Source of the DNA: Lachnospiraceae bacterium | GTDB taxonomy: Bacteria > Bacillota > Clostridia > Lachnospirales > Lachnospiraceae | Length of the DNA stretch: 64,000 nt | Reading direction: 5' to 3' | Assembly: GCA_015056945.1 (NCBI GenBank) | Contig: SVFH01000014.1 | Coordinates: forward strand, 171 to 64,170 | Shown here: positions 19,171 through 52,746 of the stretch, in pieces | Layout: each line of letters begins with the position of its first letter | Numbering within the stretch: position 1 is the stretch's first letter | The notes under the pieces: generated by a model | What the model saw: only the letters and a program-made list of their open reading frames with translations | What the model was told of the DNA's origin: nothing | The model's database searches: none | Made by a program: the position numbers and the translations under genes

Positions 19171-21528
19171 ATGAAAGAATATTGGACCAAAAAAATTTAC
19201 AAGGCCATCGTCCTTTGCTTTATGCTTCTGTTTTCTCTTCCTATAATCGGCCCGTTTCTCTCGGAATATCAGTTGAATCCGTTTGATTACGCCCGTATTA
19301 CAGATGTAGAATACAAAGCAGTGGTACAGGACGAACCTGAAAACGGCGGAAGCCTTCTTATCACGGAACGCTTGACCTATGATATTCACGCTGCTTCCTC
19401 CAACAACACGTTCTGGGAGCTTTGGCGAGACTTATCAGAAGATGTGGACGAAGGACTCAAAGTTGATTACACAGTACACTCTGTGAAACAGATTTTACCG
19501 GACGGCTCCGAAATCGTATATGAAGAAAGCCCGGTCCTTTACTGGGAAGATGAAGACTATGTTTCCTCAAACAAAGAGCTCGGTCCCGGCAAATGGTACC
19601 ACAGCAAAGGACCTTACAACGAAGATGCAAGACAGTATGAATGCGTTTTCTTTTACATTGATGATGTATACCGCGACGAAATGGTTTTTGAAATCGTTTA
19701 TGAAATGCACAATGCCTCCATGCGTTATGCAGACTGTTCCGAATTATATGTTGCAATGTATTCAGGCACAACCGTAAATCACCTGGACTCTTTTAAGGCG
19801 GATATTTTATTCCCTGCCAAAGACATGCCGGCCAACGGCAATTACGAAGCATCTACATACGGTACCTCTGAATTTAACTTCCCGTTTGAAGAATCAGACA
19901 GCAAGTATCCCGGCTATCATACCTTTTCCATTGATTTGGATAAAAAAGATTTAAAATTCGCTTATGATACCGACTATCTTGAGTTTGATTTATTCTCATA
20001 CGGCGATGACAAGCACATTTTCACAAACCACGCACCGGATAATTCCTATTCCAATGATCCTGCTCTTGATGAAATCTACGAAGAACAGGAGTATTACCAC
20101 TCATTAGCGCAAAAAATCAAAGCTTTCAAGGTAATATATTTCATTTGTGCCATCCTTTTATCTGTAGTTGTTATCGTTCTGGCATATACCGTCAATCGCT
20201 GGATTCGCTTAAAGCACTACTTCTTTAAGCCGACAGAGAAATATCAGTTCTACCGGGAGATTCCGGATGATTTGGATCCGAACTTTGCGGCAGAAGTTGT
20301 ATTCAGCAAACTGAATAAGAACGGCAAAAAAACCGGTATTTATCCCGCGTTGTTGCTAAGTCTGGTTCGTAAAAAATACATAGCAATTGAAGATACGGGA
20401 AGTACTGCACTCATCAATGTTCTTCACCAAAAACAGAACACGCCCCCGCAAATACCGGAGCCTTCCGGAACGCTTTTGGAACGGCTTGCGGCAAGCGGTC
20501 CTATTATGCAGGATCACTCTTCTGAAGACTCCTTCACCGGAACTCTTTCGAAAGAAAATATTCTTTTAAGTGAGCAGGAACCTGTATTGAACCGTCTTTT
20601 CGGTGTTGAACCGATTCAGATTGTTCACGAATCGGCTGAACCGACGTTCTTATCAGAGCTTGCTCCCGAAGGGCCTATCATGGCAGATCATGAACCACTC
20701 GTATCGGAAGAAGTAGCTAACCTTGAGTGGGATGCACCGTTTGAAGAGAAACCGCAGGAAATTCTCGAGCCGCTTACTCCTTGTGAAGAATCTCTTTTTG
20801 ATTTGATTATATACCATGCCTATATGGGTTCCATCACATTAAGCGAACTTGAAAGTTCCATGGTTTCCGACTACGATACAACAGAAACCTTTTCAACACA
20901 GATGGAAGAAGCGATTGTAAATATCGGTATCGACAAACAGTTTTATCAGAAGCTTTCCTGCAAACAGCCTGCAGAATTCTTACAGAGAATATCAAAAATG
21001 ATGAAGACCTTTGCTTTACTGATTCTGATTTTCGGAACCCTGTTCACATGGTTTTCCTCCATCGGCTTAGCCTTTGGCGCAAATTTCATTCTGGCAGCTG
21101 TACTTATTTTTGCGTCTTGTCGCATTAAGAAAGTGGCTCACAAATACATTCTTTATACACAACACGGTGAAGACGAATGTGCAAAATGGGTTGGTTTATA
21201 TAACTTCTTAAACAGTGACACATTGATGAACGAACGCACCTATACAGAAGTAGCAATCTGGGAAAAATACCTGGTTTATGCAACAGCCTTCGGTATTTCA
21301 GAAAAAGTAATAAATGCTATTAATATCCGTTGTCCCGAAGTCGCTGAGAGTCCTGTTCTTAGTAACGATTATTACCGTACCACAAGATTCCGTCATTCCG
21401 GTCATTCCTTCCATCGTTCCGTACGAGTCGGAACCCGTACCGCACGCAGCAGCTACGGCGATGGTTTTGGCGGTGGCAGCTACGGTGGCGGCGGCCGAGG
21501 CGGCGGTGGCGGTGGCGGCGGTCACTAA
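19171..21528 (+). CDS. DUF2207 family membrane protein, paralog 1
   Basis: N-terminal TM, extracellular domain, TMs, YREIP, LLSLVRK, KW.GLYNFL, WEKYLVYATAFG, Gly-rich tail. Confidence 0.85.
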   Translation: MKEYWTKKIYKAIVLCFMLLFSLPIIGPFLSEYQLNPFDYARITDVEYKAVVQDEPENGGSLLITERLTYDIHAASSNNTFWELWRDLSEDVDEGLKVDYTVHSVKQILPDGSEIVYEESPVLYWEDEDYVSSNKELGPGKWYHSKGPYNEDARQYECVFFYIDDVYRDEMVFEIVYEMHNASMRYADCSELYVAMYSGTTVNHLDSFKADILFPAKDMPANGNYEASTYGTSEFNFPFEESDSKYPGYHTFSIDLDKKDLKFAYDTDYLEFDLFSYGDDKHIFTNHAPDNSYSNDPALDEIYEEQEYYHSLAQKIKAFKVIYFICAILLSVVVIVLAYTVNRWIRLKHYFFKPTEKYQFYREIPDDLDPNFAAEVVFSKLNKNGKKTGIYPALLLSLVRKKYIAIEDTGSTALINVLHQKQNTPPQIPEPSGTLLERLAASGPIMQDHSSEDSFTGTLSKENILLSEQEPVLNRLFGVEPIQIVHESAEPTFLSELAPEGPIMADHEPLVSEEVANLEWDAPFEEKPQEILEPLTPCEESLFDLIIYHAYMGSITLSELESSMVSDYDTTETFSTQMEEAIVNIGIDKQFYQKLSCKQPAEFLQRISKMMKTFALLILIFGTLFTWFSSIGLAFGANFILAAVLIFASCRIKKVAHKYILYTQHGEDECAKWVGLYNFLNSDTLMNERTYTEVAIWEKYLVYATAFGISEKVINAINIRCPEVAESPVLSNDYYRTTRFRHSGHSFHRSVRVGTRTARSSYGDGFGGGSYGGGGRGGGGGGGGH

Positions 21529-21704
21529 AATTGCCCATGAATTGAGATTATATGAGGGTATCTTAGAATATGTTTTTACTTAAATCATCCCATTCCGGTG
21601 CATTGAAAGCCTCTTTTATCTCTGCCTTAAGCACGGCATCATCAAGCAATTCTCCTTCACACAATTTTCTTACAACTCTATTAAAAACATAGTTGCGCAA
21701 ACAT

Positions 21705-21742
21705 GATATAAAAAAACTCCGAAATCGGAGTTTTTTTATATC
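21705..21742. terminator. Bidirectional intrinsic terminator
   Basis: GATATAAAAAAACTCCGA-AA-TCGGAGTTTTTTTATATC between convergent DUF2207 and lemA. Confidence 0.85.
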
Positions 21743-21748
21743 TATTAT

Positions 21749-22441
21749 TTACACTAACCTTGCGCCACAATACTGACAATATCTTGTACCATCAGGAACG
21801 CCCATACAATTCGGACATTTCTGCGGATAACGCTTCTTTTCTTCATCCGTCAAATCGTCATCATCAAACAATTCCGGCATTTCTCTTACTTCATCCGTTA
21901 CATTAAAGAGTTCCTCTTCCTCAAACTTAAACATTCCTCCAATGATATTTCCCGGGAACATCTGAAGTTTGTTGTTATACATGGTAACCGCATCATTATA
22001 GAACTGTCTCGCAAATGTCACCTTATCTTCCGTCTCTGTCAATTCTTCCTGTAATTGCAAAAAGTGCTTATTTGACTTTAAGTCAGGATACTTCTCAGAT
22101 ACCACATACAAAGAACTGAGTACGGAATTCAGATGTGCATTTGTTTTCATTTTATCTTTGGCAAGTTCTGATTTCACAAATGCCTCGCGGCTTGCCGCAA
22201 CATTTTCCAACAGCACTTTTTCGTGGGATGCAAATTCCTGTACGGTATCCACCAGATTCGGAAGCAAATCAAATCTCCGCTGCAACTGTGCATCAATCTG
22301 CGCAAATGAATTCTTGACACGGTTTTTCGCTTTGACAAGACCGTTATATGTAATTACCAAAAATACCGCAACTGCAATCAATACAACTAAAATAATTAAC
22401 AACACAATTGCCAGTAACACCACTCCTGCTAATCCTATCAT
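21749..22441 (-). CDS. lemA: LemA family protein with C-terminal zinc ribbon
   Basis: YNGLV, QIDAQLQRRFDLLPNLV, EKYPDLKS, ARQFYND, FP.N; tail CPNC...CQYC. Confidence 0.9.
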   Translation of the reverse strand: MIGLAGVVLLAIVLLIILVVLIAVAVFLVITYNGLVKAKNRVKNSFAQIDAQLQRRFDLLPNLVDTVQEFASHEKVLLENVAASREAFVKSELAKDKMKTNAHLNSVLSSLYVVSEKYPDLKSNKHFLQLQEELTETEDKVTFARQFYNDAVTMYNNKLQMFPGNIIGGMFKFEEEELFNVTDEVREMPELFDDDDLTDEEKKRYPQKCPNCMGVPDGTRYCQYCGARLV

Positions 22442-22529
22442 TTGTTTCACTCCTTTAATTTCATTAATGGCATTATATCATCGTTCCTGCCTTTTCGCAA
22501 TGTATTCTCCTGTGGCAAAGAGTAAATCT

Positions 22530-24002
22530 CTACTCAACGAAAATATCTTTCGCCTGCAAATCATCAAAATTCACCTGCATATATTTGGCGACCTCATCCT
22601 TAGAGAACGTCCGATAAATCGTTTTGGAGATATATTTCTCTGCCGTTTTCAAAACCGTCTTATAATCCGAAATATCGTCCGGGAAATAAATTCCTCCTTT
22701 ATTACGGTTTGATAACATCCAGCACACTGCCGCAAGTGCAGACATGGAAACCGGTGTAATGGTCGGCGTCTGCCAGAAAGACCCCTCTTTCTTTTTGTAT
22801 AGAAACGATGTTTCCACGCGGTTGCCTACCCATACCGGTTCAAACGCATCTCCAAGAAGCAATACTCCCACATATTCCGTTCCGGAATCTATTTTTTCCT
22901 GATACAGCACTTCGAAACGCTCCGGATATTCGTATCCGCGGATGATTGTTTTCATACCCGGAGTTTCACAATCCTGCGGTTTCTCAGGATCCGCATCCGG
23001 ATAATTGTTCACCTTTGCATGTTCAAAATATTTGCAGGCATACTCACAGGGCTGATAGAGAAACATCACAGTAGGGCGGTATACCACCTTATCATTTTCT
23101 TTGATTTCAAGCCCCTTCGCAATGGTAATCGTTTCTTCATGCGGTACAAGATACCCTTCAAATCCGCCTCCCGGATAAAAAGTTCTGCACCTTTTATCTG
23201 CTGCAAGTTGTCGGAATGTAAAATATCCTTTTTCTGCACCAAAATTATTAACATTCTCCGCAAAATCCATGCTTTCATGCGTCCCGACATCCATGGTCGC
23301 TTCGCTTAACATCTCAAACCAGAACGAGTCCATGCACCATGTCGTGTACAGTACATTGTCACAGTACTCCCCCTTAACCTTCTGCAAATCAATGTCATTT
23401 ACATGCACCATCTTAAGTCCAAGCGCCCGTGCCGCCTCTGCAAAATTACCCTCTTTCACCAATTTCTTTAAATATTTGTCCTTCGGAAACTGTTTCGAAA
23501 CAATATATGAAATTCCTTCCTTGGTAAAATGCGACACAAGCCCGGGATTATTCCCGTGTTGTAACACAATCGGATGTCTGTTCTTATCCGGCCTTGCCGC
23601 AAACTCCGCCTTCAATGCATTCTTGCGCTCATTCTCTTCAAAAATACAGTACCAGTGGTCAGGCCAATCCGTTTCTCCGGTATTTATGTACATGATATTC
23701 CGCTCAGCACACCATCTGCAGATATCCAGCGTCCCCACGGTATCCGCAAAATCTACCAGCAAATCTCCGCTTTGAAGCAAAGAGCCAAACACTTCATCGT
23801 AATTCTCCCTGGTCACCTCTTTGGTATGAAAATTAGAACTGATACCACCGAGATTCACGTACGCCTTGAATTCAGCGCCGTCCATGGTAATCACGTGATA
23901 TTTATGCTCGTTATATTTGATTTCTTTTGAAATTTTCTCAAAAAAACTTTTCCCGACTGCCCCGAATCCGAACTGGACAATCGTTCCATCAAATCTAATC
24001 AA
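22530..24002 (-). CDS. Homospermidine synthase-like protein (saccharopine-dehydrogenase-type NAD(P)-binding fold)
   Basis: FGFGAVG, GNNPGLVSHF, TTW, GTHE, GYLVPHEE, YRPT..F.Y.PC, G.EYVGVLL motifs are collinear with bacterial HSS; TTG start. Confidence 0.8.
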   Translation of the reverse strand: MIRFDGTIVQFGFGAVGKSFFEKISKEIKYNEHKYHVITMDGAEFKAYVNLGGISSNFHTKEVTRENYDEVFGSLLQSGDLLVDFADTVGTLDICRWCAERNIMYINTGETDWPDHWYCIFEENERKNALKAEFAARPDKNRHPIVLQHGNNPGLVSHFTKEGISYIVSKQFPKDKYLKKLVKEGNFAEAARALGLKMVHVNDIDLQKVKGEYCDNVLYTTWCMDSFWFEMLSEATMDVGTHESMDFAENVNNFGAEKGYFTFRQLAADKRCRTFYPGGGFEGYLVPHEETITIAKGLEIKENDKVVYRPTVMFLYQPCEYACKYFEHAKVNNYPDADPEKPQDCETPGMKTIIRGYEYPERFEVLYQEKIDSGTEYVGVLLLGDAFEPVWVGNRVETSFLYKKKEGSFWQTPTITPVSMSALAAVCWMLSNRNKGGIYFPDDISDYKTVLKTAEKYISKTIYRTFSKDEVAKYMQVNFDDLQAKDIFVE

Positions 24003-24018
24003 AACGTTCTACCCCTCT

Positions 24019-24669
24019 TTACACTTTCCGCGGTTTTCGTATTTTTACTTTTATGGGCTTCTGATATCTGTTTGTCCATAATATTTCTATCTGCTTTTTC
24101 TTGAACGGATATAAAATCTTCTGCAAATCCGGTGAAAAACTTTCTCCAATTACAATAATCCTGTGAATACCGTTTTCGATAAAATAATCTGCCGACGGCA
24201 GGTCCTGATGATATACATCCCAGCTGTTATCAAAAACGGAAACGTTTATTTTATGTCTGTTTAACCTGTTTCTGTCTACCAGAAAAGCCGGAAGTGCATC
24301 CGGCGCAATCTCAATCCCGGCAAGATGTCTTGCCCCAAGGATTAATCCGCTGACAATTACCTGGTTGTTTACCGTCGCCCTGGCATTCTTTTGTTCAATC
24401 GTGCCGTTATATACAGGAACCGGCCTGTATCCCGCTTTTGCAAGTGCAATGCCTTCCTTAATACTGTTCATGCCCGGCAAATCTACAATCAGCGCCGCAC
24501 CTTCGAAGGACTCGTCCAGATAATGCAGCTTCGGAATCACAAGCTCCGCCTGTGAGTATCCCTTTGTACACTGCTTCAACCCCGTAAAAGGAACAGGTCT
24601 GGCCCAGTCTGTCCATTTGGCACCTTCCGGCGCCCAAATTCTGTAAACATCCTTTATTGTCAACACCAT
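24019..24669 (-). CDS. Conserved hypothetical protein, paralog of 43223-43870
   Basis: Shared motifs IWAP..KW.DW.RPV.F, GYRP.PVYNGTIEQ, FDNSWD.Y.QDLP; GAAAGGAG RBS. Confidence 0.85.
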   Translation of the reverse strand: MVLTIKDVYRIWAPEGAKWTDWARPVPFTGLKQCTKGYSQAELVIPKLHYLDESFEGAALIVDLPGMNSIKEGIALAKAGYRPVPVYNGTIEQKNARATVNNQVIVSGLILGARHLAGIEIAPDALPAFLVDRNRLNRHKINVSVFDNSWDVYHQDLPSADYFIENGIHRIIVIGESFSPDLQKILYPFKKKQIEILWTNRYQKPIKVKIRKPRKV

Positions 24670-41620: not shown

Positions 41621-42313
41621 TTAATTATAATCAAAATGTTCTTCCTTGGAATCTGTACCATACGGCACTTCCTGAAATTCCTGCGCATAATTTCCATATC
41701 CGTATTCCGGCTCCCTGCCTATAAGGAAAGGATACGCAACCAACGGAACAATCGGTACGAAAATGCCGATAACTGCTATTGCCGTTGCGCCGCCATCCAT
41801 ACCGTAGGTTCTGAACAAGTCAAGGTTCATACGCATCTTAATCAGCGCTACACTCAAAGCAAAAATGCAATAAACAAGTGCAACAAAAATCCAGAGTATT
41901 ACTGCCACAATCGCAATAGCATCCCAAAAAACCTCACGTCCCGGCAAAATCTCATCGGGATTAATATTCATTGTTATCTCGTTGCTAAACTGATTTATTC
42001 CGCCTTGAATGGAAGACGCAATACTCGTCGCAATCTGCGCAATCAGCAAAATCCAGAATGCCATAATTCGCTTCTTGGGTTTAATAAATAACAGTTCGTA
42101 CTTTCTCTGTGGTAAAACCATCGGCACATAGTCCTGCGCTACAGGAATAAATGCCAGCCAGGAAAGCGGAACTCCCGCTTTCTGACCAATCATAAAAAAT
42201 GAAACTGCTTTGATCACATATTGAACAAATGCCACCAGAACAGCTACTGCAATAATGATAAAAAGGAAACCGCCCAACACACCCAGTATTGCTATTGCCG
42301 CCAAATCGTTCAT
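41621..42313 (-). CDS. Hypothetical multi-TM membrane protein (DUF5684-like)
   Basis: KAGVPLSWLAFIPV motif; similar to neighbour 42338-42883. Confidence 0.7.
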   Translation of the reverse strand: MNDLAAIAILGVLGGFLFIIIAVAVLVAFVQYVIKAVSFFMIGQKAGVPLSWLAFIPVAQDYVPMVLPQRKYELLFIKPKKRIMAFWILLIAQIATSIASSIQGGINQFSNEITMNINPDEILPGREVFWDAIAIVAVILWIFVALVYCIFALSVALIKMRMNLDLFRTYGMDGGATAIAVIGIFVPIVPLVAYPFLIGREPEYGYGNYAQEFQEVPYGTDSKEEHFDYN

Positions 42314-42337
42314 TTAAATCCCCCCGTTTCTTATAAA

Positions 42338-42883
42338 TTACGCATTAAAATCCGGTTCACGATTCATAATCATGAAAGCAACAACTATCGATACAATGGG
42401 AACAAACATACCCAAAATGGAAAGAAGCATTGCATTATCCTGCATACCGTATGTCATATAAATATCATAATTCATTCTCCATGTGAAACCATATGTAATT
42501 ACTCCAATCGCTACACAATATGCGAAATAAAGTAACCATCCCAACACCGGAATCACCATACTGAAAGCAAATGGAACAGCAAGTACGCCCGCAATCAAAG
42601 TGAACAATAAAAAATGCCAGAAGACTTTTGTTCTGTCTGTCTGAATATACTTGTTAAAAAGATTAAACTCTCTCCTCGGCAAATTTAACATTACCCAAAT
42701 ATTTCCGACAGGGACAAATACAAGCCATGCATGAGGCAATCCCTGTCTCTTTGCCATCCTGTAATACGGAAACACAAATACAATATAAAACGCGATTACA
42801 AAAAGAAACATCAACAGATAAATCAAAAGACCTACACCCATTCCCATCATTCCGACAAGACTTGCCAATTCGTTTTCACTCAT
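42338..42883 (-). CDS. Hypothetical multi-TM membrane protein (DUF5684-like)
   Basis: RQGLPHAWLVFVPVGN; shares RMN.D...TYGM and REP with its neighbour. Confidence 0.7.
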   Translation of the reverse strand: MSENELASLVGMMGMGVGLLIYLLMFLFVIAFYIVFVFPYYRMAKRQGLPHAWLVFVPVGNIWVMLNLPRREFNLFNKYIQTDRTKVFWHFLLFTLIAGVLAVPFAFSMVIPVLGWLLYFAYCVAIGVITYGFTWRMNYDIYMTYGMQDNAMLLSILGMFVPIVSIVVAFMIMNREPDFNA

Positions 42884-43222: not shown

Positions 43223-43870
43223 TCAGTCCGGAAATAACGGGCGTAAAAGTTTGATTCTTACCTTTTTTTCATACTCCTTCACCCGATACAGTTCGACACC
43301 TTTCTTCTGATAACGGTACAGTATCTTCTTTAAATCACGAGAGACCTTATTTCCGACAATCACCACTTTACGGATTCCGTTCTTTCGTAAATACTCTCCC
43401 GTCGGAAGATCCTGTGCATATAAATCCCAACTGTTATCAAACAAAGAACGATGCTTGCGAAATTGATTCAGGCGATTCGAATCAGTCAGGAAAACAGGAG
43501 GCGCATCATCTTCAAATGTCATTTGGCTAAGCGTATCCGCACACTGATGCAATGCCTTTCCCACACTTAAATTATCTACTTTAGCAGCTGCCTCATTTTG
43601 CTCAATGGTGCCGTTATATACAGGAATCGGACGATACCCGATTGCCGCCAGAGCCAGCCCCATGTATACACTTTCCGCACCCGGCATATCCACGATAAAA
43701 GCCGTATCTTTTTCGCAAACTTCCTGAAACAAAACAGGAGGAAGTTCTTCTTCCTGCAGATAATAACCCCTGTCATAAAGATGATTCCCGACAAAAGCCA
43801 CCGGGCGTACCCAGTCTACCCATTTTTTACCGTAAGGGGCCCAGATACGGTATATTTCCTTCTCTGTCAT
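43223..43870 (-). CDS. Conserved hypothetical protein, paralog of 24019-24669
   Basis: IWAPYGKKWVDWVRPVAF, GYRPIPVYNGTIEQ, FDNSWDLYAQDLP; starts 2 bp after the GspS-like stop. Confidence 0.85.
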   Translation of the reverse strand: MTEKEIYRIWAPYGKKWVDWVRPVAFVGNHLYDRGYYLQEEELPPVLFQEVCEKDTAFIVDMPGAESVYMGLALAAIGYRPIPVYNGTIEQNEAAAKVDNLSVGKALHQCADTLSQMTFEDDAPPVFLTDSNRLNQFRKHRSLFDNSWDLYAQDLPTGEYLRKNGIRKVVIVGNKVSRDLKKILYRYQKKGVELYRVKEYEKKVRIKLLRPLFPD

Positions 43871-43872
43871 AC

Positions 43873-45081
43873 TTATGCCTCCTCTACCAGCACGGGAATA
43901 TCCGCAGCATTCGAATCAATTCGCGGTGTATCACTGATTCTTGCATAATATCCTGCATGTTCACCGTTCACTGCATACGATCCAAGACAAACATGATAGA
44001 ATTCTCCGTTTACTCCTGTTAAAGGAAGGCTGTGAAAGCGCTTCTGCGCCAAATAATCCTTCGGATGAAATTTGACTGCTTTCATAATTTTGCGATACTC
44101 ATCATCTTTACAGGCTTCGCGGATGGAAATATTTTCACCCACACGGCCATAAACAGGTTTATAAATATACCCTTCTTTTCCTTTAGCAGCTTTTACCGTA
44201 ATCGTATCCGGCAAAAGTTTACGCCAGGTTGCCATACTGACACCGTGAGCCTCCATTGCATCCCACACGAAGGGAAAACGTTTGGTCTGTGCAAAAATCG
44301 CAATCGGATGATTGCAGGAAGGGGTAATTGTATCAAAATATCCGTGCCAGCGTTTCGGTTTCACTTCCGTCAGCCATTCCAACGGAGAAAAGCGAACAAT
44401 TCCGTCCACTTCCCCTTCGTTTCCGTCAAGTATGGAAAATGCACGGTTGTTTTCAAATCTCAGGTGGTCCGATGCTGCATAAATAATATGATAGCCATCT
44501 TCTTCCAGGCGATCTCCTAAATACTGCATCACCTGTCTGTCGTCACTGTAGCAGGTACAATGTACCATCATGATTCTACCGCCCTTTTTTACCTTGGAAG
44601 AAATTGCTTTCACCAGAGTTTCGCCAAAACTTTTGAAATAATACTTCCCCTCCGGCAAAAACTGCCTGGCCGCTTCGGGTAAAAGAGAACTCTCTGCGAA
44701 TCCGCCGGGCACATCGCTGTTTACTTCACTGATTGCCCAATCCCCTTCAACAGTAGGGTGAAAATCATAACGCATCAGACGGATGTGTTTATCCGGATCG
44801 TAATTTTTCATACGGATAATATCCCGCTTCACATTACGCGGAAGCCCCAACGGTTTGGCAAGAGACAAATCGGAATTGATTAACTGCTCTGCCGCCCTTG
44901 TTTCTTTATCAAGTGCCTCCGTATAAGCAGAAACCGCCTCATGTTCTTCTTTGGTAAGAACAAGTGCATATTTCGCAATCGTATTGTGGTCCAAAAACTG
45001 CGGATCCCACTTATAGCAGTCAAACATCGCACACAACCTGTACTCTTCGTATTTTTCTTCCGGTATCGCCACCAGTTTCAT
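43873..45081 (-). CDS. Glutathionylspermidine synthetase-family ATP-grasp ligase (synthetase domain only)
   Basis: MRYDF, SEVNSDVPGG..E, QTKR, YKPVYGRVGENI, YLAQ, LGSYAV, YARI; no CHAP amidase domain. Confidence 0.85.
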   Translation of the reverse strand: MKLVAIPEEKYEEYRLCAMFDCYKWDPQFLDHNTIAKYALVLTKEEHEAVSAYTEALDKETRAAEQLINSDLSLAKPLGLPRNVKRDIIRMKNYDPDKHIRLMRYDFHPTVEGDWAISEVNSDVPGGFAESSLLPEAARQFLPEGKYYFKSFGETLVKAISSKVKKGGRIMMVHCTCYSDDRQVMQYLGDRLEEDGYHIIYAASDHLRFENNRAFSILDGNEGEVDGIVRFSPLEWLTEVKPKRWHGYFDTITPSCNHPIAIFAQTKRFPFVWDAMEAHGVSMATWRKLLPDTITVKAAKGKEGYIYKPVYGRVGENISIREACKDDEYRKIMKAVKFHPKDYLAQKRFHSLPLTGVNGEFYHVCLGSYAVNGEHAGYYARISDTPRIDSNAADIPVLVEEA

Positions 45082-48753: not shown

Positions 48754-48799
48754 CGCGTTTCCTCCTTTTCTTATCAAAAACTTTCCTGTATGAGAACAA

Positions 48800-48921
48800 A
48801 GAGTCCGCAAACGGACTCTCGCGCCGAGCGCGGTTGCGATAGCAACATCTTCCTTACGCGCGAGTGTGCATCCTTAGCGGAGCTTTTTATTGCATAGGAA
48901 TTTCCTATGCAATAAAAAACC
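48800..48921. repeat. Dispersed structured repeat family A, copy 2
   Basis: 48848-48921 matches 1-75; additional hairpin AGAGTCCG-CAAA-CGGACTCT and CTCGCGC...GCGCGAG stem. Confidence 0.85.
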
Positions 48922-48948
48922 ACCTACCCCGGAAAGGATAAGTGGTTC
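48914..48948 (-). terminator. Intrinsic terminator after the candidate small ORF
   Basis: Minus strand AACCACTTATCC...GGGTAGGTGGTT followed by a T tract. Confidence 0.65.
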
Positions 48949-48986
48949 AACTTCAATCTTCACTGCAAACTTCTTGAATGAAAACT

Positions 48987-49097
48987 TTATTCTTCCCTGC
49001 GAGCATCTTTATGACATAGCAAATGAAAACCGTACATACGAGAATAGCGCACGATTGAATCAAAAATGTATGCAGTTCTGATAACTGACTTGCTCAT
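48987..49097 (-). CDS. Candidate 36-aa small protein or leader peptide
   Basis: MSKSVIRTAYIFDSIVRYSRMYGFHLLCHKDARREE; GAGAGGA RBS; TTGACG-17-TAGAAT promoter (49155-49127); terminator downstream. Confidence 0.45.
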   Translation of the reverse strand: MSKSVIRTAYIFDSIVRYSRMYGFHLLCHKDARREE

Positions 49098-49202
49098 GGA
49101 AATCGTTTCCTCTCAAATTTTTACTCATTCTATACCACAATCTATTATTCGTCAACATCTTTTTCATGTGAATTTCTTTGCGGAAGGTTTCTCGCCATTC
49201 GA

Positions 49203-49300
49203 GCTTCTTTGCACAGTTTCTCGTCACATGGACTTCTTTGCACAGTTCTTCGTCACATGGACTTCTTTGCACAGTTCTTCGTCACATGGACTTCTTTGCA
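49203..49300. repeat. 29-bp tandem repeat, about 3.3 copies
   Basis: Unit GACTTCTTTGCACAGTTCTTCGTCACATG, head-to-tail with no spacers. Confidence 0.9.
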
Positions 49301-49624
49301 GAAGACCTTTCGTCGCATTATACGCCTTTCACAAAGCTTTTCTTCCGTTTAAAGTATCTATAGCCAAAAATTTCTTTTCCAGGTCCACTTATTCTTCAAT
49401 AACATAACTAAAAGAAACAAAAAAAGTATCTATCAGAAAAAACTTATTCTCCGGCAACTTTTTTCTTAAAATAAGTGGAACCGAAAAACAGTTTTTTCTA
49501 TATAGATACTTTAGACCTCATTCCAATGTCCCCGATAAAGCGGATACGCCAAACTTTATTCTGTACCCACACTTTTCTTGCAATAATCGTCCCAAACAAC
49601 AATTATCGGATTCGAAAGCGGGTT

Positions 49625-50383
49625 TTATTTTGTGGGTGCCATGAGAATTTTACCGGTACCGCGGTAAACATTTACAAGCCCTTCACCGGAGGTTGCACTT
49701 CCCATAAGGGAATTGCCTGCACGCTCGGTTGAGAACTGAAGACTTGCAGACCAGCATACTGCAAAGTTACCGTCAATCTTGATGCAATCATTCTCTAATT
49801 CAATTTCATATAATTCTTCTCTCGGGCAACGGCTCAACAATACCGCCTGGCCGTTTCCGACAAGTTTTAAGTTGAATAAACCTTCACCGCCTGCTACTGC
49901 AGAAGTAAGGTTGGTACGCATCTGTACTTCATCCTTCACTTCATCATCACAGCAGATAAACATACCGTCGTCACAGCAAAGTCCGTTCCACTCTGCAACA
50001 TTTTCAATAATCGGATAAAGATATGTAGGTTCGCAGACCACAAGGCCGGTACCCTTGTACAGAGGCTTAACAGGCGCATCACCTGTTAATTTGGACTTAA
50101 ACATTTTGCCCATCATATCACCTACGCCGTTTACTCCTGCCGTCTGGGTTACATTTCCGGTAATAAACTGCATTGCACCGGGTTTTAATCTGATTGCGTT
50201 GTCCTGTAATTCAATCGCAACCTGCTTCAAGGTACAATTTGTTTTGGACATGAAATAAGAAGTTGACGCACTGTTCGGTGTTACCGACATATCCATATTG
50301 TGCTGGAATACGGTAAATACTCCTTTCTGTTCCAAAATTTTGATGTTGTCATTATCATAAATAAAATTTTTGATTCTTACCAT
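49625..50383 (-). CDS. AIM24 family protein
   Basis: PGAMQF, YKGTG.V..EPT, GGEGLFNL, IDGNFA, SGEGLVNVYRGTG. Confidence 0.88.
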   Translation of the reverse strand: MVRIKNFIYDNDNIKILEQKGVFTVFQHNMDMSVTPNSASTSYFMSKTNCTLKQVAIELQDNAIRLKPGAMQFITGNVTQTAGVNGVGDMMGKMFKSKLTGDAPVKPLYKGTGLVVCEPTYLYPIIENVAEWNGLCCDDGMFICCDDEVKDEVQMRTNLTSAVAGGEGLFNLKLVGNGQAVLLSRCPREELYEIELENDCIKIDGNFAVCWSASLQFSTERAGNSLMGSATSGEGLVNVYRGTGKILMAPTK

Positions 50384-50577
50384 TTCTTGTCTCCTTTGGG
50401 ATTTATCTTTACTTTCTTAGTTTATCACTTTTTCACCGGAGTATATAGTATTTTTTTTGCAAAATAACATATTCTATTTCGCACTTTTCAATATATTCCT
50501 TCACAAAGCGCATATTTTTCCTTTACACCTTATTTATTTTACAATATACTGAAAAAAAAACAAATGAATGGAGTAGG

Positions 50578-52668
50578 ATGATTATGAATTCGCAAACCAA
50601 AGTAAACCTGCTCATTGTTCTTTTTTGCATCCTTCCGATATGCCTCGGTATACTTGTTCCTATTTTAGAGGAAGCAGAATTTGAGTTTACCAATCCTTAC
50701 GATTATGCAAGGATAACGGATGTAGAATACAAGGCCGTCGTAGTAGATGAGCCGGAACAAAAGGGCAAGGTTATCATTACAGAGCGTCTCACCTTCGACA
50801 TTCATGCCGCTTCCAAGAACAATCTTTTCTGGGAATTGTGGCGTGAATTACCGGAACAATATGTTGATGGCGTCAAGGTGGACTATAAGGTTAATTCCGT
50901 TAAACAAATTTACCCTGACGGACGTGTATATGTTTATGAGGAAAGCCCGAAGCTGTACTGGAATGATTCCGATTATGTGAAAGAAAATACCAAATACGGT
51001 CCGGGGAAATGGTTCCACAGTGAAGGACCTTACAATCCCGACCAGAGAAGATATGAATGCGTATTGTTCTATGTAGACGGTCTTTATCGGGAAGAAGTCG
51101 TGTATGAGATTGAATACGAAATGTACAATGCCGGTCTTCGCTACGGTGACTGTTCCGAGCTTTACCTTTCAATGTATTCCGGCGATACCATCAAGTATCT
51201 GGACTCCTATAAAGCCCAGATTCTGGTTCCGAATGATGACATGCCGGCGAAAGGAAACTATCTGGTACAGACTTATGGTACCTCAAAGAATGATTTTCCG
51301 TACAAAGAGTCTGCCGATGCAAATCCCGGATATCATACGTTTTCTTTCGAGTTGGACAAGTGGGACCTGCGTTTTAACCCGTATAACGAATATATCGAAT
51401 TTGTGCTTTTATCTTATGGTGAAGATGCATTTTCCTTCACGGAACATGCGTCTGTAAATGACTACTATTATGACGACAGCCTAGATTACATTCACAGAGA
51501 TATGAACGAGTACAAGATGCGTCCGGTTCTGTTTTTCTTCCTAAAAGCAATCATTGCTTTTGCATTGACAGCGCTTGGACTGTGGTTCGTCATTTATGCT
51601 CTTATAACAGACAGAAGACTTCGCAAAAAATATAAATTCTTTACTCCGGAAACAGACTATAAATATTTTCGCGACATTCCGTCTGATTTGGACCCGGTTG
51701 TAGCTTCACGATTTGTTTTCTGTAAGAAGAAGTCCAAAAAAGATATCGCTGCATCATCCTATGCAGCCATCTTATTAAGCCTTGCACGAAAAAAATATAT
51801 CTTATTGCGTGAGCTTTCCAATGACGATATAGAAATCTACATTCCGAACAGACCGGGACCGAATAAAGAAACGCAACTCACGACTTTAGAGCCGCTTAGC
51901 CATTGCGAGTCTCTTTATTATAACCTTTTATTAAGACATGCTTCTACGGACACCATTTCCATGAGAAGCTTTCGAAACAAAGTATCTACGGACTATAATG
52001 CTACCAATACATTTGCACAGAACATGAATCTTGCTTTTTCCAAAGTAGCATTCCGTTTGAACTATATCCAGAAAGCATCATACACACAGCCGCAGAATGG
52101 TTTGAGAACTGCACGCACTGCCCTATTTACTATAGGTGCGCTCTCCATTACACTGGTTAATTTTATCTCTTCACTAACCAGACTGGACATGGCATTCGGA
52201 GCCTATACCTTATTTGGCATCCTTTGCATCATCGCCGGAATCATTATAAACACAAAGATTCCGAAGTATATTCTTCTGACACAGCTTGGAGAAAACGAAT
52301 ATGCGAAATGGCGCGGTTTATATAACTTCTTAAACAGCGATACGTTATTAAGCGACTCTACGGTTATTGCCCTTCCGGTTTGGGAAAAATACCTTGTGTA
52401 CGCAACCGCATTCGGTATCTCCTCCAAAGTCATCAAGGCAATTGAATTGAAATGTAAGGAGATTGCAACTGAAAGTCCTATTTTGAGTAACAGCTTTTAT
52501 CATTCGCGTTCCTTCCACATTTCAAGCGGTCATTTCCATTCTTCTGTCCGCTCCGGTTCTTACAGTGGCGGTTCCTTTGGAGGAAGCTACGGTGGTGGCG
52601 GAGGCTACGGCGGCGGAGGCTACGGTGGTGGCGGCCGAGGCGGCGGTGGCGGTGGCGGCGGTCACTAA
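50578..52668 (+). CDS. DUF2207 family membrane protein, paralog 2
   Basis: NP.DYARITDVEYKAVV shared with paralog 1; WEKYLVYATAFG; tail ...YGGGGRGGGGGGGGH. Confidence 0.85.
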   Translation: MIMNSQTKVNLLIVLFCILPICLGILVPILEEAEFEFTNPYDYARITDVEYKAVVVDEPEQKGKVIITERLTFDIHAASKNNLFWELWRELPEQYVDGVKVDYKVNSVKQIYPDGRVYVYEESPKLYWNDSDYVKENTKYGPGKWFHSEGPYNPDQRRYECVLFYVDGLYREEVVYEIEYEMYNAGLRYGDCSELYLSMYSGDTIKYLDSYKAQILVPNDDMPAKGNYLVQTYGTSKNDFPYKESADANPGYHTFSFELDKWDLRFNPYNEYIEFVLLSYGEDAFSFTEHASVNDYYYDDSLDYIHRDMNEYKMRPVLFFFLKAIIAFALTALGLWFVIYALITDRRLRKKYKFFTPETDYKYFRDIPSDLDPVVASRFVFCKKKSKKDIAASSYAAILLSLARKKYILLRELSNDDIEIYIPNRPGPNKETQLTTLEPLSHCESLYYNLLLRHASTDTISMRSFRNKVSTDYNATNTFAQNMNLAFSKVAFRLNYIQKASYTQPQNGLRTARTALFTIGALSITLVNFISSLTRLDMAFGAYTLFGILCIIAGIIINTKIPKYILLTQLGENEYAKWRGLYNFLNSDTLLSDSTVIALPVWEKYLVYATAFGISSKVIKAIELKCKEIATESPILSNSFYHSRSFHISSGHFHSSVRSGSYSGGSFGGSYGGGGGYGGGGYGGGGRGGGGGGGGH

Positions 52669-52690
52669 TACTGACACATACAGACTTTAG

Positions 52691-52746
52691 AATAAACAAA
52701 AACACTCCGCAAAGTGATACAGCTTTGCGGAGTATTTTTGTTTATT
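52691..52746. terminator. Bidirectional intrinsic terminator
   Basis: AATAAACAAAAACACTCCGCAAAG...CTTTGCGGAGTATTTTTGTTTATT. Confidence 0.85.

Follow-up and report, generated by a model that had tools for sequence, protein, structure and literature searches.

Why does a predicted polyamine ligase share its locus with a protein of no named family and with a membrane protein that ends in a glycine-rich tail? This question is raised by a stretch of 64,000 nucleotides from the genome of a Lachnospiraceae bacterium (assembly GCA_015056945.1, contig SVFH01000014.1, positions 171 to 64,170 of the forward strand), which is called the window below. It encodes a GspS/YgiC-like ATP-grasp amine ligase, two copies of a protein here called X (X1 and X2), an NAD-dependent enzyme similar to homospermidine synthase (HSS), a LemA protein, and two DUF2207 membrane proteins (Table 1). 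We propose that the ligase and X together attach a polyamine to the glycine-rich tail of DUF2207, and that this polyamine is probably homospermidine supplied by the HSS-like enzyme. Judged from sequence comparisons and a predicted complex, the probability of this model as a whole is a little below one half (about 0.47).

Two partial copies of a conserved cassette

The initial annotation had placed X, an HSS-like gene, lemA and a DUF2207 gene between mtaB and ireB, and a GspS-like gene, an X paralog and a second DUF2207 gene at higher coordinates. All of them are present at these places. The first block is flanked by an MtaB-type radical SAM gene and by ireB, and the 16 bp between X1 and the HSS-like gene (24003-24018) were confirmed. 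X1 and X2 share 45% identity (E 1e-69), and the two DUF2207 proteins share 53% across 407 amino acids.

Species-representative genomes were scanned for X. From 189 confirmed stretches the best 80 were kept, which yielded 79 loci, and the weaker 109 were left out. Neighbouring genes were called by tblastn, and counts of downstream genes were limited to the 58 loci with at least 5 kb of downstream sequence. Enrichment of the four other families next to X had been set in advance as the test of the proposed linkage, and it is pronounced. A GspS-like gene lies beside X in 78 of 79 loci (directly upstream in 77), and an HSS-like gene in 72 (directly downstream in 71). In the 58 longer loci DUF2207 and gspS are present without exception, HSS is found in 52, LemA in 31, and DUF350 in none. 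In addition, GspS and X are fused in nine of the 79 loci and in all three longer matches.

Therefore, the core of the cassette is ligase, X and DUF2207, and hss and lemA are optional. The ancestral order that had been suggested, gspS-X-hss-lemA-DUF2207, is indeed the commonest one among the 79 loci, with DUF2207 convergent to the other genes, but lemA is often missing. Likewise, the idea that X ties all these genes into one set holds for ligase, X and DUF2207. The genes hss and lemA belong to the set as optional members, and most of the wider X family is accompanied by DUF350 instead.

The window is composed of two complementary partial copies of this cassette. The genome (88% complete) contains one ligase, one HSS-like enzyme, two X and two DUF2207 proteins, and every copy lies inside the window. 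The arrangement is not due to chance, because the same order recurs in most of the 79 genomes. An assembly artefact is ruled out as well, because contigs of one other run (X4), which show strain-level differences, span 30 of 30 bins of both regions in overlapping pieces.

The linkage also holds in the reverse direction. Among 351 genomes of the family X was found in four, and full-length matches to the ligase subfamily were found in the same four, while five further matches outside of them were weak and confined to the C-terminus. The HSS-like query matched two of 399 scored genomes of the class, the own genome and G832, both times within the cassette; in G832 the gene lies between X and DUF2207. 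The cassette is rare, with X in about 1% of the sampled family genomes, and thus represents an accessory trait. The nearest named relatives are Lachnospiraceae metagenome-assembled genomes (MAGs) from animal guts.

The two parts of the window have different closest relatives. X1 and the HSS-like enzyme are nearest to loci L001 and L002, in which gspS is displaced or missing, and X2 is nearest to loci with a GspS-X fusion. A recent duplication of X in place was considered and rejected, as the distance between X1 and X2 is 1.92 changes per site and either copy is closer to sequences found elsewhere than to the other. Other partial duplications were seen in L034 (DUF2207 along with X) and in L056 (DUF2207 with hss). 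In L001, from the lineage of the closest relatives, gspS and X are separated by two inserted genes (1242 and 305 amino acids), which might mark an intermediate stage of the split in the window.

The ligase and its predicted complex with X

The ligase scores 86.7 bits with PF03738 (cut-off 29.3) and matches the YgiC structure 7uk8 with E 1e-5. Seven residues, R104, D106, E119, N121, K267, K308 and R381, are kept in 67 of 67 sequences and correspond to the seven triphosphate and magnesium residues of GspS (PMC2427367). It is thus highly probable that the enzyme generates an acyl phosphate on a peptide C-terminus at the expense of ATP, and that this is then amidated by a polyamine.

The acceptor is probably not glutathione. 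The glutathione pocket of the E. coli enzyme (EcGspS) contains Ser335, Asp387 and Glu392, Glu391 binds the polyamine, and bifunctional GspS has an amidase domain (PMC2427367). The window ligase aligns Val, Tyr and Asp at the three pocket positions. It has 402 amino acids compared with 619 for GspS proper, reaches 30 bits with PRK10507 (cut-off 882), and lacks the amidase domain. Val and Tyr at the first two positions and the missing domain make glutathione an unlikely acceptor. This bears on the alternative of a soluble conjugate as the product of the ligase, either glutathionyl- or short-peptidyl-homospermidine, which DUF2207 and LemA would sense, export or accompany. Clusters of hss and gss have been interpreted in this way, as potential makers of glutathionylhomospermidine (PMC9992855), YgiC and YjfC have been described as peptidyl-polyamine synthetases, and the DUF2207 tail does not end in Gly. 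However, apart from the replaced Ser335 and Asp387, a tailed partner recurs in every X lineage examined, and the tail of cassette DUF2207 proteins is fixed to the residue, which is not the case in the controls (see below). A soluble product is an unlikely alternative.

A complex of ligase and X, which the initial annotation had named as a check, was predicted for the ligase and the tail-bearing X of locus L091, with alignments that included the window proteins. The mark used for the complex score is reached by 116 of 157 solved pairs and by two of 215 mismatched pairs. The L091 pair reached an ipSAE of 0.81, compared with 0.00 for the best of three controls; at least 53% of the contacts agree between runs, and the partner pLDDT is at least 78. 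That the prediction reproduces a known complex is unlikely, because no solved structure resembling X was found.

The predicted interface is formed by F19, K23-D30, T173-Q180 and H203 of the ligase and by W23, P26, F29, N88, D145-W148 and Q153-S157 of X. Of the 22 X residues that are conserved at 90% or more, eight lie in this interface of 36 residues (Fisher p 0.03), and both X1 and X2 retain the full set of eight. Residues 173-183 of the ligase align with residues 385-394 of E. coli GspS, a segment that includes Asp387, Glu391 and Glu392. X is thus predicted, with high probability, to dock on two sites of the ligase, its N-terminal F-x3-KWDPQ-x2-D motif and the lip loop of the acyl-donor pocket. 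This position at the substrate entrance suggests that X may be a presenting subunit. Residues 228-248, the tail of the L091 X, are not among the confidently placed interface residues and are uninformative in either direction.

The X family and its glycine-rich companions

X1 matches no Pfam or NCBIfam family. The best match of the X family to a named family, DUF3137 (E 1e-4, in nine of 118 members), is not convincing. A profile search retrieved 1,094 clusters at 50% identity, of which the best 150 were listed. Several architectures can be distinguished. Members of the first clade (a), to which the window proteins belong, are tailless and have about 216 amino acids. Members of the second (b) have about 250 amino acids and carry a C-terminal tail of their own, GLRRNxAGGFG...G. 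In 80 metagenome loci of this type, the best 80 of 515 confirmed ones and in part near-identical, gspS was found in 73 and DUF350 in 47, whereas HSS, LemA and DUF2207 were found in none. When only loci with 2.5 kb of upstream sequence are counted, the numbers rise to 35/35 for gspS and 33/35 for DUF350, in DUF350-gspS-X operons. The third architecture (c) is longer (400-470 amino acids), contains hydrophobic segments and has an Arg/Gly tail with GG at its end. In the fourth (d), three distant tailless X are followed by a Gly/Ser-tailed protein of 94-125 amino acids and a double GspS-like protein, with DUF350 near two of them. Tail-bearing X terminates in Gly in 53 of 55 distinct tails; among 97 representatives of 231-330 amino acids, 83 do so.

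Three observations concern these lineages. At L092-L094 a distant X has two neighbours, a protein of 820-880 amino acids composed of two GspS-like halves and a small protein with a Gly/Ser tail. P0274 is a single chain of 745 amino acids that combines a GspS-like domain with a lipoprotein-like segment, an X domain and a Gly/Ser tail, and may be a true triple fusion or a merged gene call. An AdoMet decarboxylase gene (L091:3222-3611) lies two genes upstream of a DUF350-gspS-X operon.

What is constant over the X lineages examined is the ligase, X, and a glycine-rich C-terminus, which is located on X itself, on a small partner, or on DUF2207. The family thus represents a natural experiment, in which a glycine-rich tail accompanies X and the ligase; in the clade of the window it is fixed as a peptide of 15 residues. 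The ligases of clades (a) and (b) have most invariant residues in common. Position 232 is Thr or Ser in clade (a) and Phe or Tyr in clade (b) and in YgiC; it is speculation that the smaller residue could leave space for a bulkier terminal residue of the acceptor.

The proposed structure search gave confident models of X, an alpha/beta protein (pLDDT 83.5 and 91.6), but no clear relative. Foldseek found no match at E up to 0.001. The best Z scores with VIA were 4.5 and 4.9, for TOPRIM-like, PTS IIB and other folds that were all tied. When the PDB was searched with a profile, no match was better than E 0.45, and in the ESM Atlas only two unnamed clusters were similar (TM about 0.6). Searches without a match do not prove that the fold is new. 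A likeness to NYN/PIN domains was unsupported.

Several polar residues of X are near-invariant (D63, N88, D129, R132, D145, N146, D154 and D179), and D63, D129, R132 and D179 lie outside the predicted interface. This would fit X being an enzyme that prepares or reverses the site, by trimming the terminal His of the DUF2207 tail, altering its fixed Arg, or acting as an amidase. The amidase domain of bifunctional GspS sets a precedent, and the His end of the tail needs an explanation in any case. However, the family lacks a near-invariant His or Cys, no hydrolase fold was matched (best Z 4.9), and X is found just the same where Gly is already the last residue of the tail. An enzymatic role of X, which would be compatible with the preferred model, therefore appears rather doubtful.

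The C-terminal tail of DUF2207

Both DUF2207 proteins of the window contain the two domains PF09972 and PF20990 over cut-off, a membrane topology, and a glycine-rich tail. Hydropathy indicates an anchor at the N-terminus, a single helix in the middle and a hairpin. From this topology the C-terminus should be cytoplasmic, on the same side as the soluble enzymes. DUF2207a has an acidic and Pro-rich insertion of about 110 amino acids (window positions ~20395-20735), which is missing in DUF2207b.

Tails were compared for 63 cassette DUF2207 proteins longer than 580 amino acids. The pattern R-Gn-[HQN] is present in 50 of them and exactly GGGR-G8-H in 44; two tails end in Gln or Asn instead of His. 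Of the remaining 13, 12 read alike once CGG-N is counted as one step. As a control, the 30 best DUF2207_C loci of the family were used, two of which were cassette copies. The other 28 contain 24 Gly tails, of which 22 end in Trp, one in Phe and one in Arg, and four proteins without a tail; 22 of the 28 end in (S/A)W, and the R-G8-H tail is found in none of the 28. In the own genome, only four of 2,365 open reading frames encode at least six Gly within the last 15 residues; two of these are the DUF2207 genes, and none of the four ends in Gly. Judged by its conservation, the odds are about even that the cytoplasmic tail of DUF2207 is the acceptor, with the polyamine placed on the His itself or on a Gly exposed by trimming.

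DUF2207 and LemA could also be an envelope module in their own right and no more than fellow travellers of the ligase-X-HSS operon. Pairs of lemA and DUF2207 are common without the cassette (16 of the 28 control loci), such a pair beside ovoA was judged to be unrelated to its neighbour (PMC12631010), and DUF2207 is encoded on the opposite strand. On the other hand, DUF2207 is present in 58 of 58 loci and is thus more constant than hss or lemA, it has been duplicated together with X (window, L034) and with hss (L056), and its tail is cassette-specific. Mere co-travelling is thus the least probable of the explanations.

In 14 loci (L012, L013, L014, L027, L037, L038, L039, L042, L043, L049, L055, L062, L064 and L066) the DUF2207 gene is broken by +1 shifts at CGG-N, mostly CGGA at positions where relatives have a Gly codon. 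The sites differ between the genomes, which are low-GC (26-33%) clostridial ones from several studies. When CGG-N is read as one step, the exact tail is restored in 14 of 14 cases, and the whole DUF2207 gene in L012. In-frame CGG occurs in seven of 68,563 codons in these loci and two others, compared with 22 of 58,893 codons in other low-GC loci. One clade thus appears to shift frame by +1, or to decode four bases, at CGG in a systematic manner, a phenomenon of which no description was found in the literature search.

The HSS-like enzyme and the polyamine supply

All 14 PDB matches of the HSS-like enzyme are homospermidine synthases, and they extend over the full length (best 2ph5, E 3e-41, and 4xq9, E 2e-31). 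The catalytic residues of the B. viridis enzyme (BvHSS) include N162, W229, E237, H296, E298, Glu210 and Glu117 (PMC8489232), and five of these seven are retained. N152, W222, E230 and E290, which correspond to N162, W229, E237 and E298, are present in 68 of 68 sequences, and H288, which corresponds to H296, in at least 97%. These residues make it quite probable that the enzyme couples diamines with NAD, and tip the balance slightly in favour of homospermidine itself as the product. The host carries polyamine genes on another contig (decarboxylase, spermidine synthase, arginase-family and carboxyspermidine genes), which represent an existing spermidine operon and make a supply of putrescine plausible.

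Alternatively, the HSS-like enzyme might act in the manner of deoxyhypusine synthase and extend a protein-bound amine, ligated putrescine or Arg-derived ornithine, by an aminobutyl group instead of making free homospermidine. Its position in a clade of its own on a long branch, the altered residues of the entry loop and the inner site, the copy of X that stays beside hss in split cassettes (window, L034), and the fixed Arg at position -10 of the tail would fit. This is nevertheless very unlikely, since the R and H of the tail are retained in the seven loci without hss and free homospermidine is the product of those distant HSS homologues that have been assayed to date (PMC9992855); the lack of an X-HSS fusion among three longer matches is a weak point in the same direction.

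A model for the cassette

In the proposed model the HSS-like enzyme would make homospermidine, and X would be a bound subunit of the GspS-like ligase. The pair would activate the C-terminal carboxylate of DUF2207 and amidate it, and the flexible, acid-ended tail would thereby be turned into a polycationic tail at the inner face of the membrane. The weakest inference concerns the purpose, which might be envelope maintenance at that face. A bolder and more tentative version is that a two-subunit ligase, one subunit of which has an undescribed fold, writes a new modification, C-terminal homospermidinylation of the Gly tail of a membrane protein, possibly on His, and that the tail swap within the X family reveals glycine-rich C-termini as the natural substrates of the whole stand-alone GspS/YgiC family.

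Several observations weigh against the model. With regard to the acceptor, glycine-rich tails are an old and general trait of DUF2207, present in 24 of the 28 controls, and what is specific to the cassette is limited to the R and the terminal H. GspS acts on a Gly carboxylate and the tail ends in His, so either acceptance of His or trimming to Gly must be assumed, and the terminal His contrasts with the Gly end of tail-bearing X. With regard to the amine, the HSS-like enzyme is only about 26% identical to known HSS. Glu210 of BvHSS is replaced by Asp203 in 68 of 68 sequences, and Glu117 by Ala or Thr111, with Glu110 (66 of 68) and Asp112 (67 of 68) adjacent; in BvHSS the exchange E117Q left 1.5% activity (PMC8489232). 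Moreover, a 17-row tree separates the HSS-like enzymes from six other HSS sequences as a supported clade (99/95) with a long stem, at a place where long branches meet. HSS was not found in seven cassette-bearing genomes that have room for it, which is a weak negative as these are incomplete MAGs, and together with the spermidine operon of the host this indicates that hss is not needed for the core. With regard to the complex, it was modelled for a tail-bearing relative and not for the pair of the window, and the enrichment of conserved residues on the ligase side of the interface is not significant (p 0.18). Furthermore, the genomes are related, so that the locus counts overstate independence, and the ligase was not found in the genome of L002 (a 2.3-Mb MAG). 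With regard to envelope stress, which the initial annotation had considered, the published link is based on PspA operons, and no recurrent gene cluster of PspA size is evident in the cassette loci, the CesT/Tir-PspA dyad and its replacements not having been searched by family.

If the model is true, it describes a new bacterial protein modification and a natural target of the long-sought kind for the YgiC-type ligase family. It would also assign a function to the unnamed X family, the confident model of which matches no solved fold clearly, and would provide a handle on DUF2207 tails and on a homospermidine route in gut Bacillota.

Other features of the window

Table 1. Positions of the cassette genes and associated elements in the window
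Feature	Position	Strand	Size	Remarks
DUF2207a membrane protein	19162/19171-21528	+		convergent to lemA; ends YGGGGRGGGGGGGGH; proposed acceptor
Codons of the conserved G4-R-G8-H tail of DUF2207a	21481-21528	+
Hairpin	21705-21742	.	17 bp	A/T tracts on either side; between convergent lemA and DUF2207a
lemA	21749-22450	-		PF04011, E 2e-50; optional cassette member
HSS-like NAD-dependent enzyme	22530-24002	-	490 aa	own long-branched clade
X1	24019-24669	-	216 aa	ATG start; tailless clade; alpha/beta protein; predicted accessory subunit of the GspS-like ligase
X2	43223-43870	-		X1 paralog; starts 2 bp behind the ligase gene
GspS/YgiC-like ATP-grasp amine ligase	43873-45081	-	402 aa	PF03738, E 2e-24; single genomic copy
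DUF2207b	50578-52668	+		second copy; G4-R-G8-H tail as in DUF2207a

The hairpin between lemA and DUF2207a is likely to be a bidirectional terminator, as judged from its sequence. A promoter-like site was found upstream of lemA (22500-22472); overall, promoter- and terminator-like matches are no commoner than expected by chance. The C-terminus of LemA contains a CxxC...CxxC pattern, which matches a Pfam zinc ribbon weakly (E 0.019). The GC content gives no island signal, and a search of the PLSDB plasmids did not find X. Contigs of low depth from three gut metatranscriptomes of one study overlap parts of DUF2207a, lemA, hss, X1 and gspS; strand and level are unreadable and they may stem from DNA, so they were not used as evidence.

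The region downstream of X2 (41621-42883) encodes a pair of paralogous membrane proteins without a name, of 230 and 181 amino acids, and relatives were found in two of 79 loci. Two intergenic repeats precede the AIM24 gene, a tandem repeat of 29 nt (49187-49300) and a 47-nt inverted repeat around a direct repeat spaced by 72 nt (49347-49516). A multi-copy element is present at 48790-48920 and at 52698; in run X4 the summed contig depth of its bin is 360, compared with about 14. One contig joint of this run skips 48916-52698, the block of AIM24 and DUF2207b, which is probably a repeat artefact and possibly an excisable block.

Comparison with known systems

The primary paper on YgiC and YjfC as peptide-spermidine ligases is said to be that of Pederick from 2023. 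Iyer and colleagues (2009) reportedly discussed GspS-like ATP-grasp neighbourhoods together with protein modification and may have anticipated the tail idea. The literature search, which left subscription papers largely aside, yielded no description of X, the predicted complex, the cassette, the tail swap or a tail modification. The initial annotation knew of no description of the combination, and this stands for the cassette. It does not stand for two parts of it, because both the clustering of hss and gss (PMC9992855) and operons of GspS, DUF350 and DUF1190 (PMC11237479) have been published.

The closest likeness is to YgiB-YgiC and YjfL(DUF350)-YjfM(DUF1190)-YjfC of E. coli, which likewise contain a stand-alone GspS-like ligase with the same catalytic residues (PMC11762307, PMC11237479), beside a membrane protein and a protein with a glycine-rich C-terminus. 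Other X clades have, as these operons, DUF350 and an RxxxxGGFG...G tail. YgiC and YjfC have been reported to be peptide-spermidine ligases (PMC11762307, PMC12568646), and according to the first of these papers the physiological substrate of YgiC is unknown. Operons that combine PspA with a GspS-like ligase, DUF350 and DUF1190 have been described in a paper whose main text, as far as found, mentions neither LemA nor homospermidine (PMC11237479). In contrast, the window ligase is of a distant subfamily, with a profile match to YgiC at E 4e-9, and has X as a predicted extra subunit. The cassette lacks a recurrent DUF1190-type gene, DUF350 and a PspA cluster: DUF350 was found by tblastn in none of the 79 loci and not in the own genome (88% complete), and the loci contain no unexplained recurrent gene, although DUF1190 and PspA were not scanned by family. 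In addition, the tail of the cassette is on DUF2207 and ends in His, and HSS is linked.

Clusters of hss and gss in beta-proteobacteria and the Achromobacter phage Motura resemble the cassette in that an HSS gene lies beside a GspS-like gene, and glutathionylhomospermidine was suggested as the product (PMC9992855). In Motura (L208:4977-8570) the order is hss, a lipoprotein of 127 amino acids ending RGGFG...AGG, gss, and DUF350. The gene between hss and gss encodes a DUF1190-like lipoprotein (E 5e-4, under the cut-off), and the DUF350 gene follows. This arrangement parallels that of the window, and the published clusters may be tail-modifying rather than glutathione-modifying. Their HSS is canonical, as is their PF03738 ligase (E 5e-144), while the window enzymes belong to distant clades in Bacillota and are accompanied by X, LemA and DUF2207.

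The HSS and SpeY routes have been covered before (PMC13625781). The bacterial HSS of known structure (B. viridis 4XQ9/4PLP, 2PH5, P. aeruginosa 6Y87) are homologous to the HSS-like enzyme over the full length and have in common with it the NAD loop, N162, W229 and the E237-H296-E298 triad. They differ from it by the low identity, the exchanges of Glu210 and Glu117 with acidic residues flanking the latter, another C-terminal motif, and the long branch. Lastly, lemA-DUF2207 operons of the same family encode the same two protein families and a glycine-rich DUF2207 tail. In those operons the genes are co-directional and the tail ends in G6-(S/A)-W, whereas in the cassette the genes are convergent, the tail ends in G4-R-G8-H, and ligase and X are always present.

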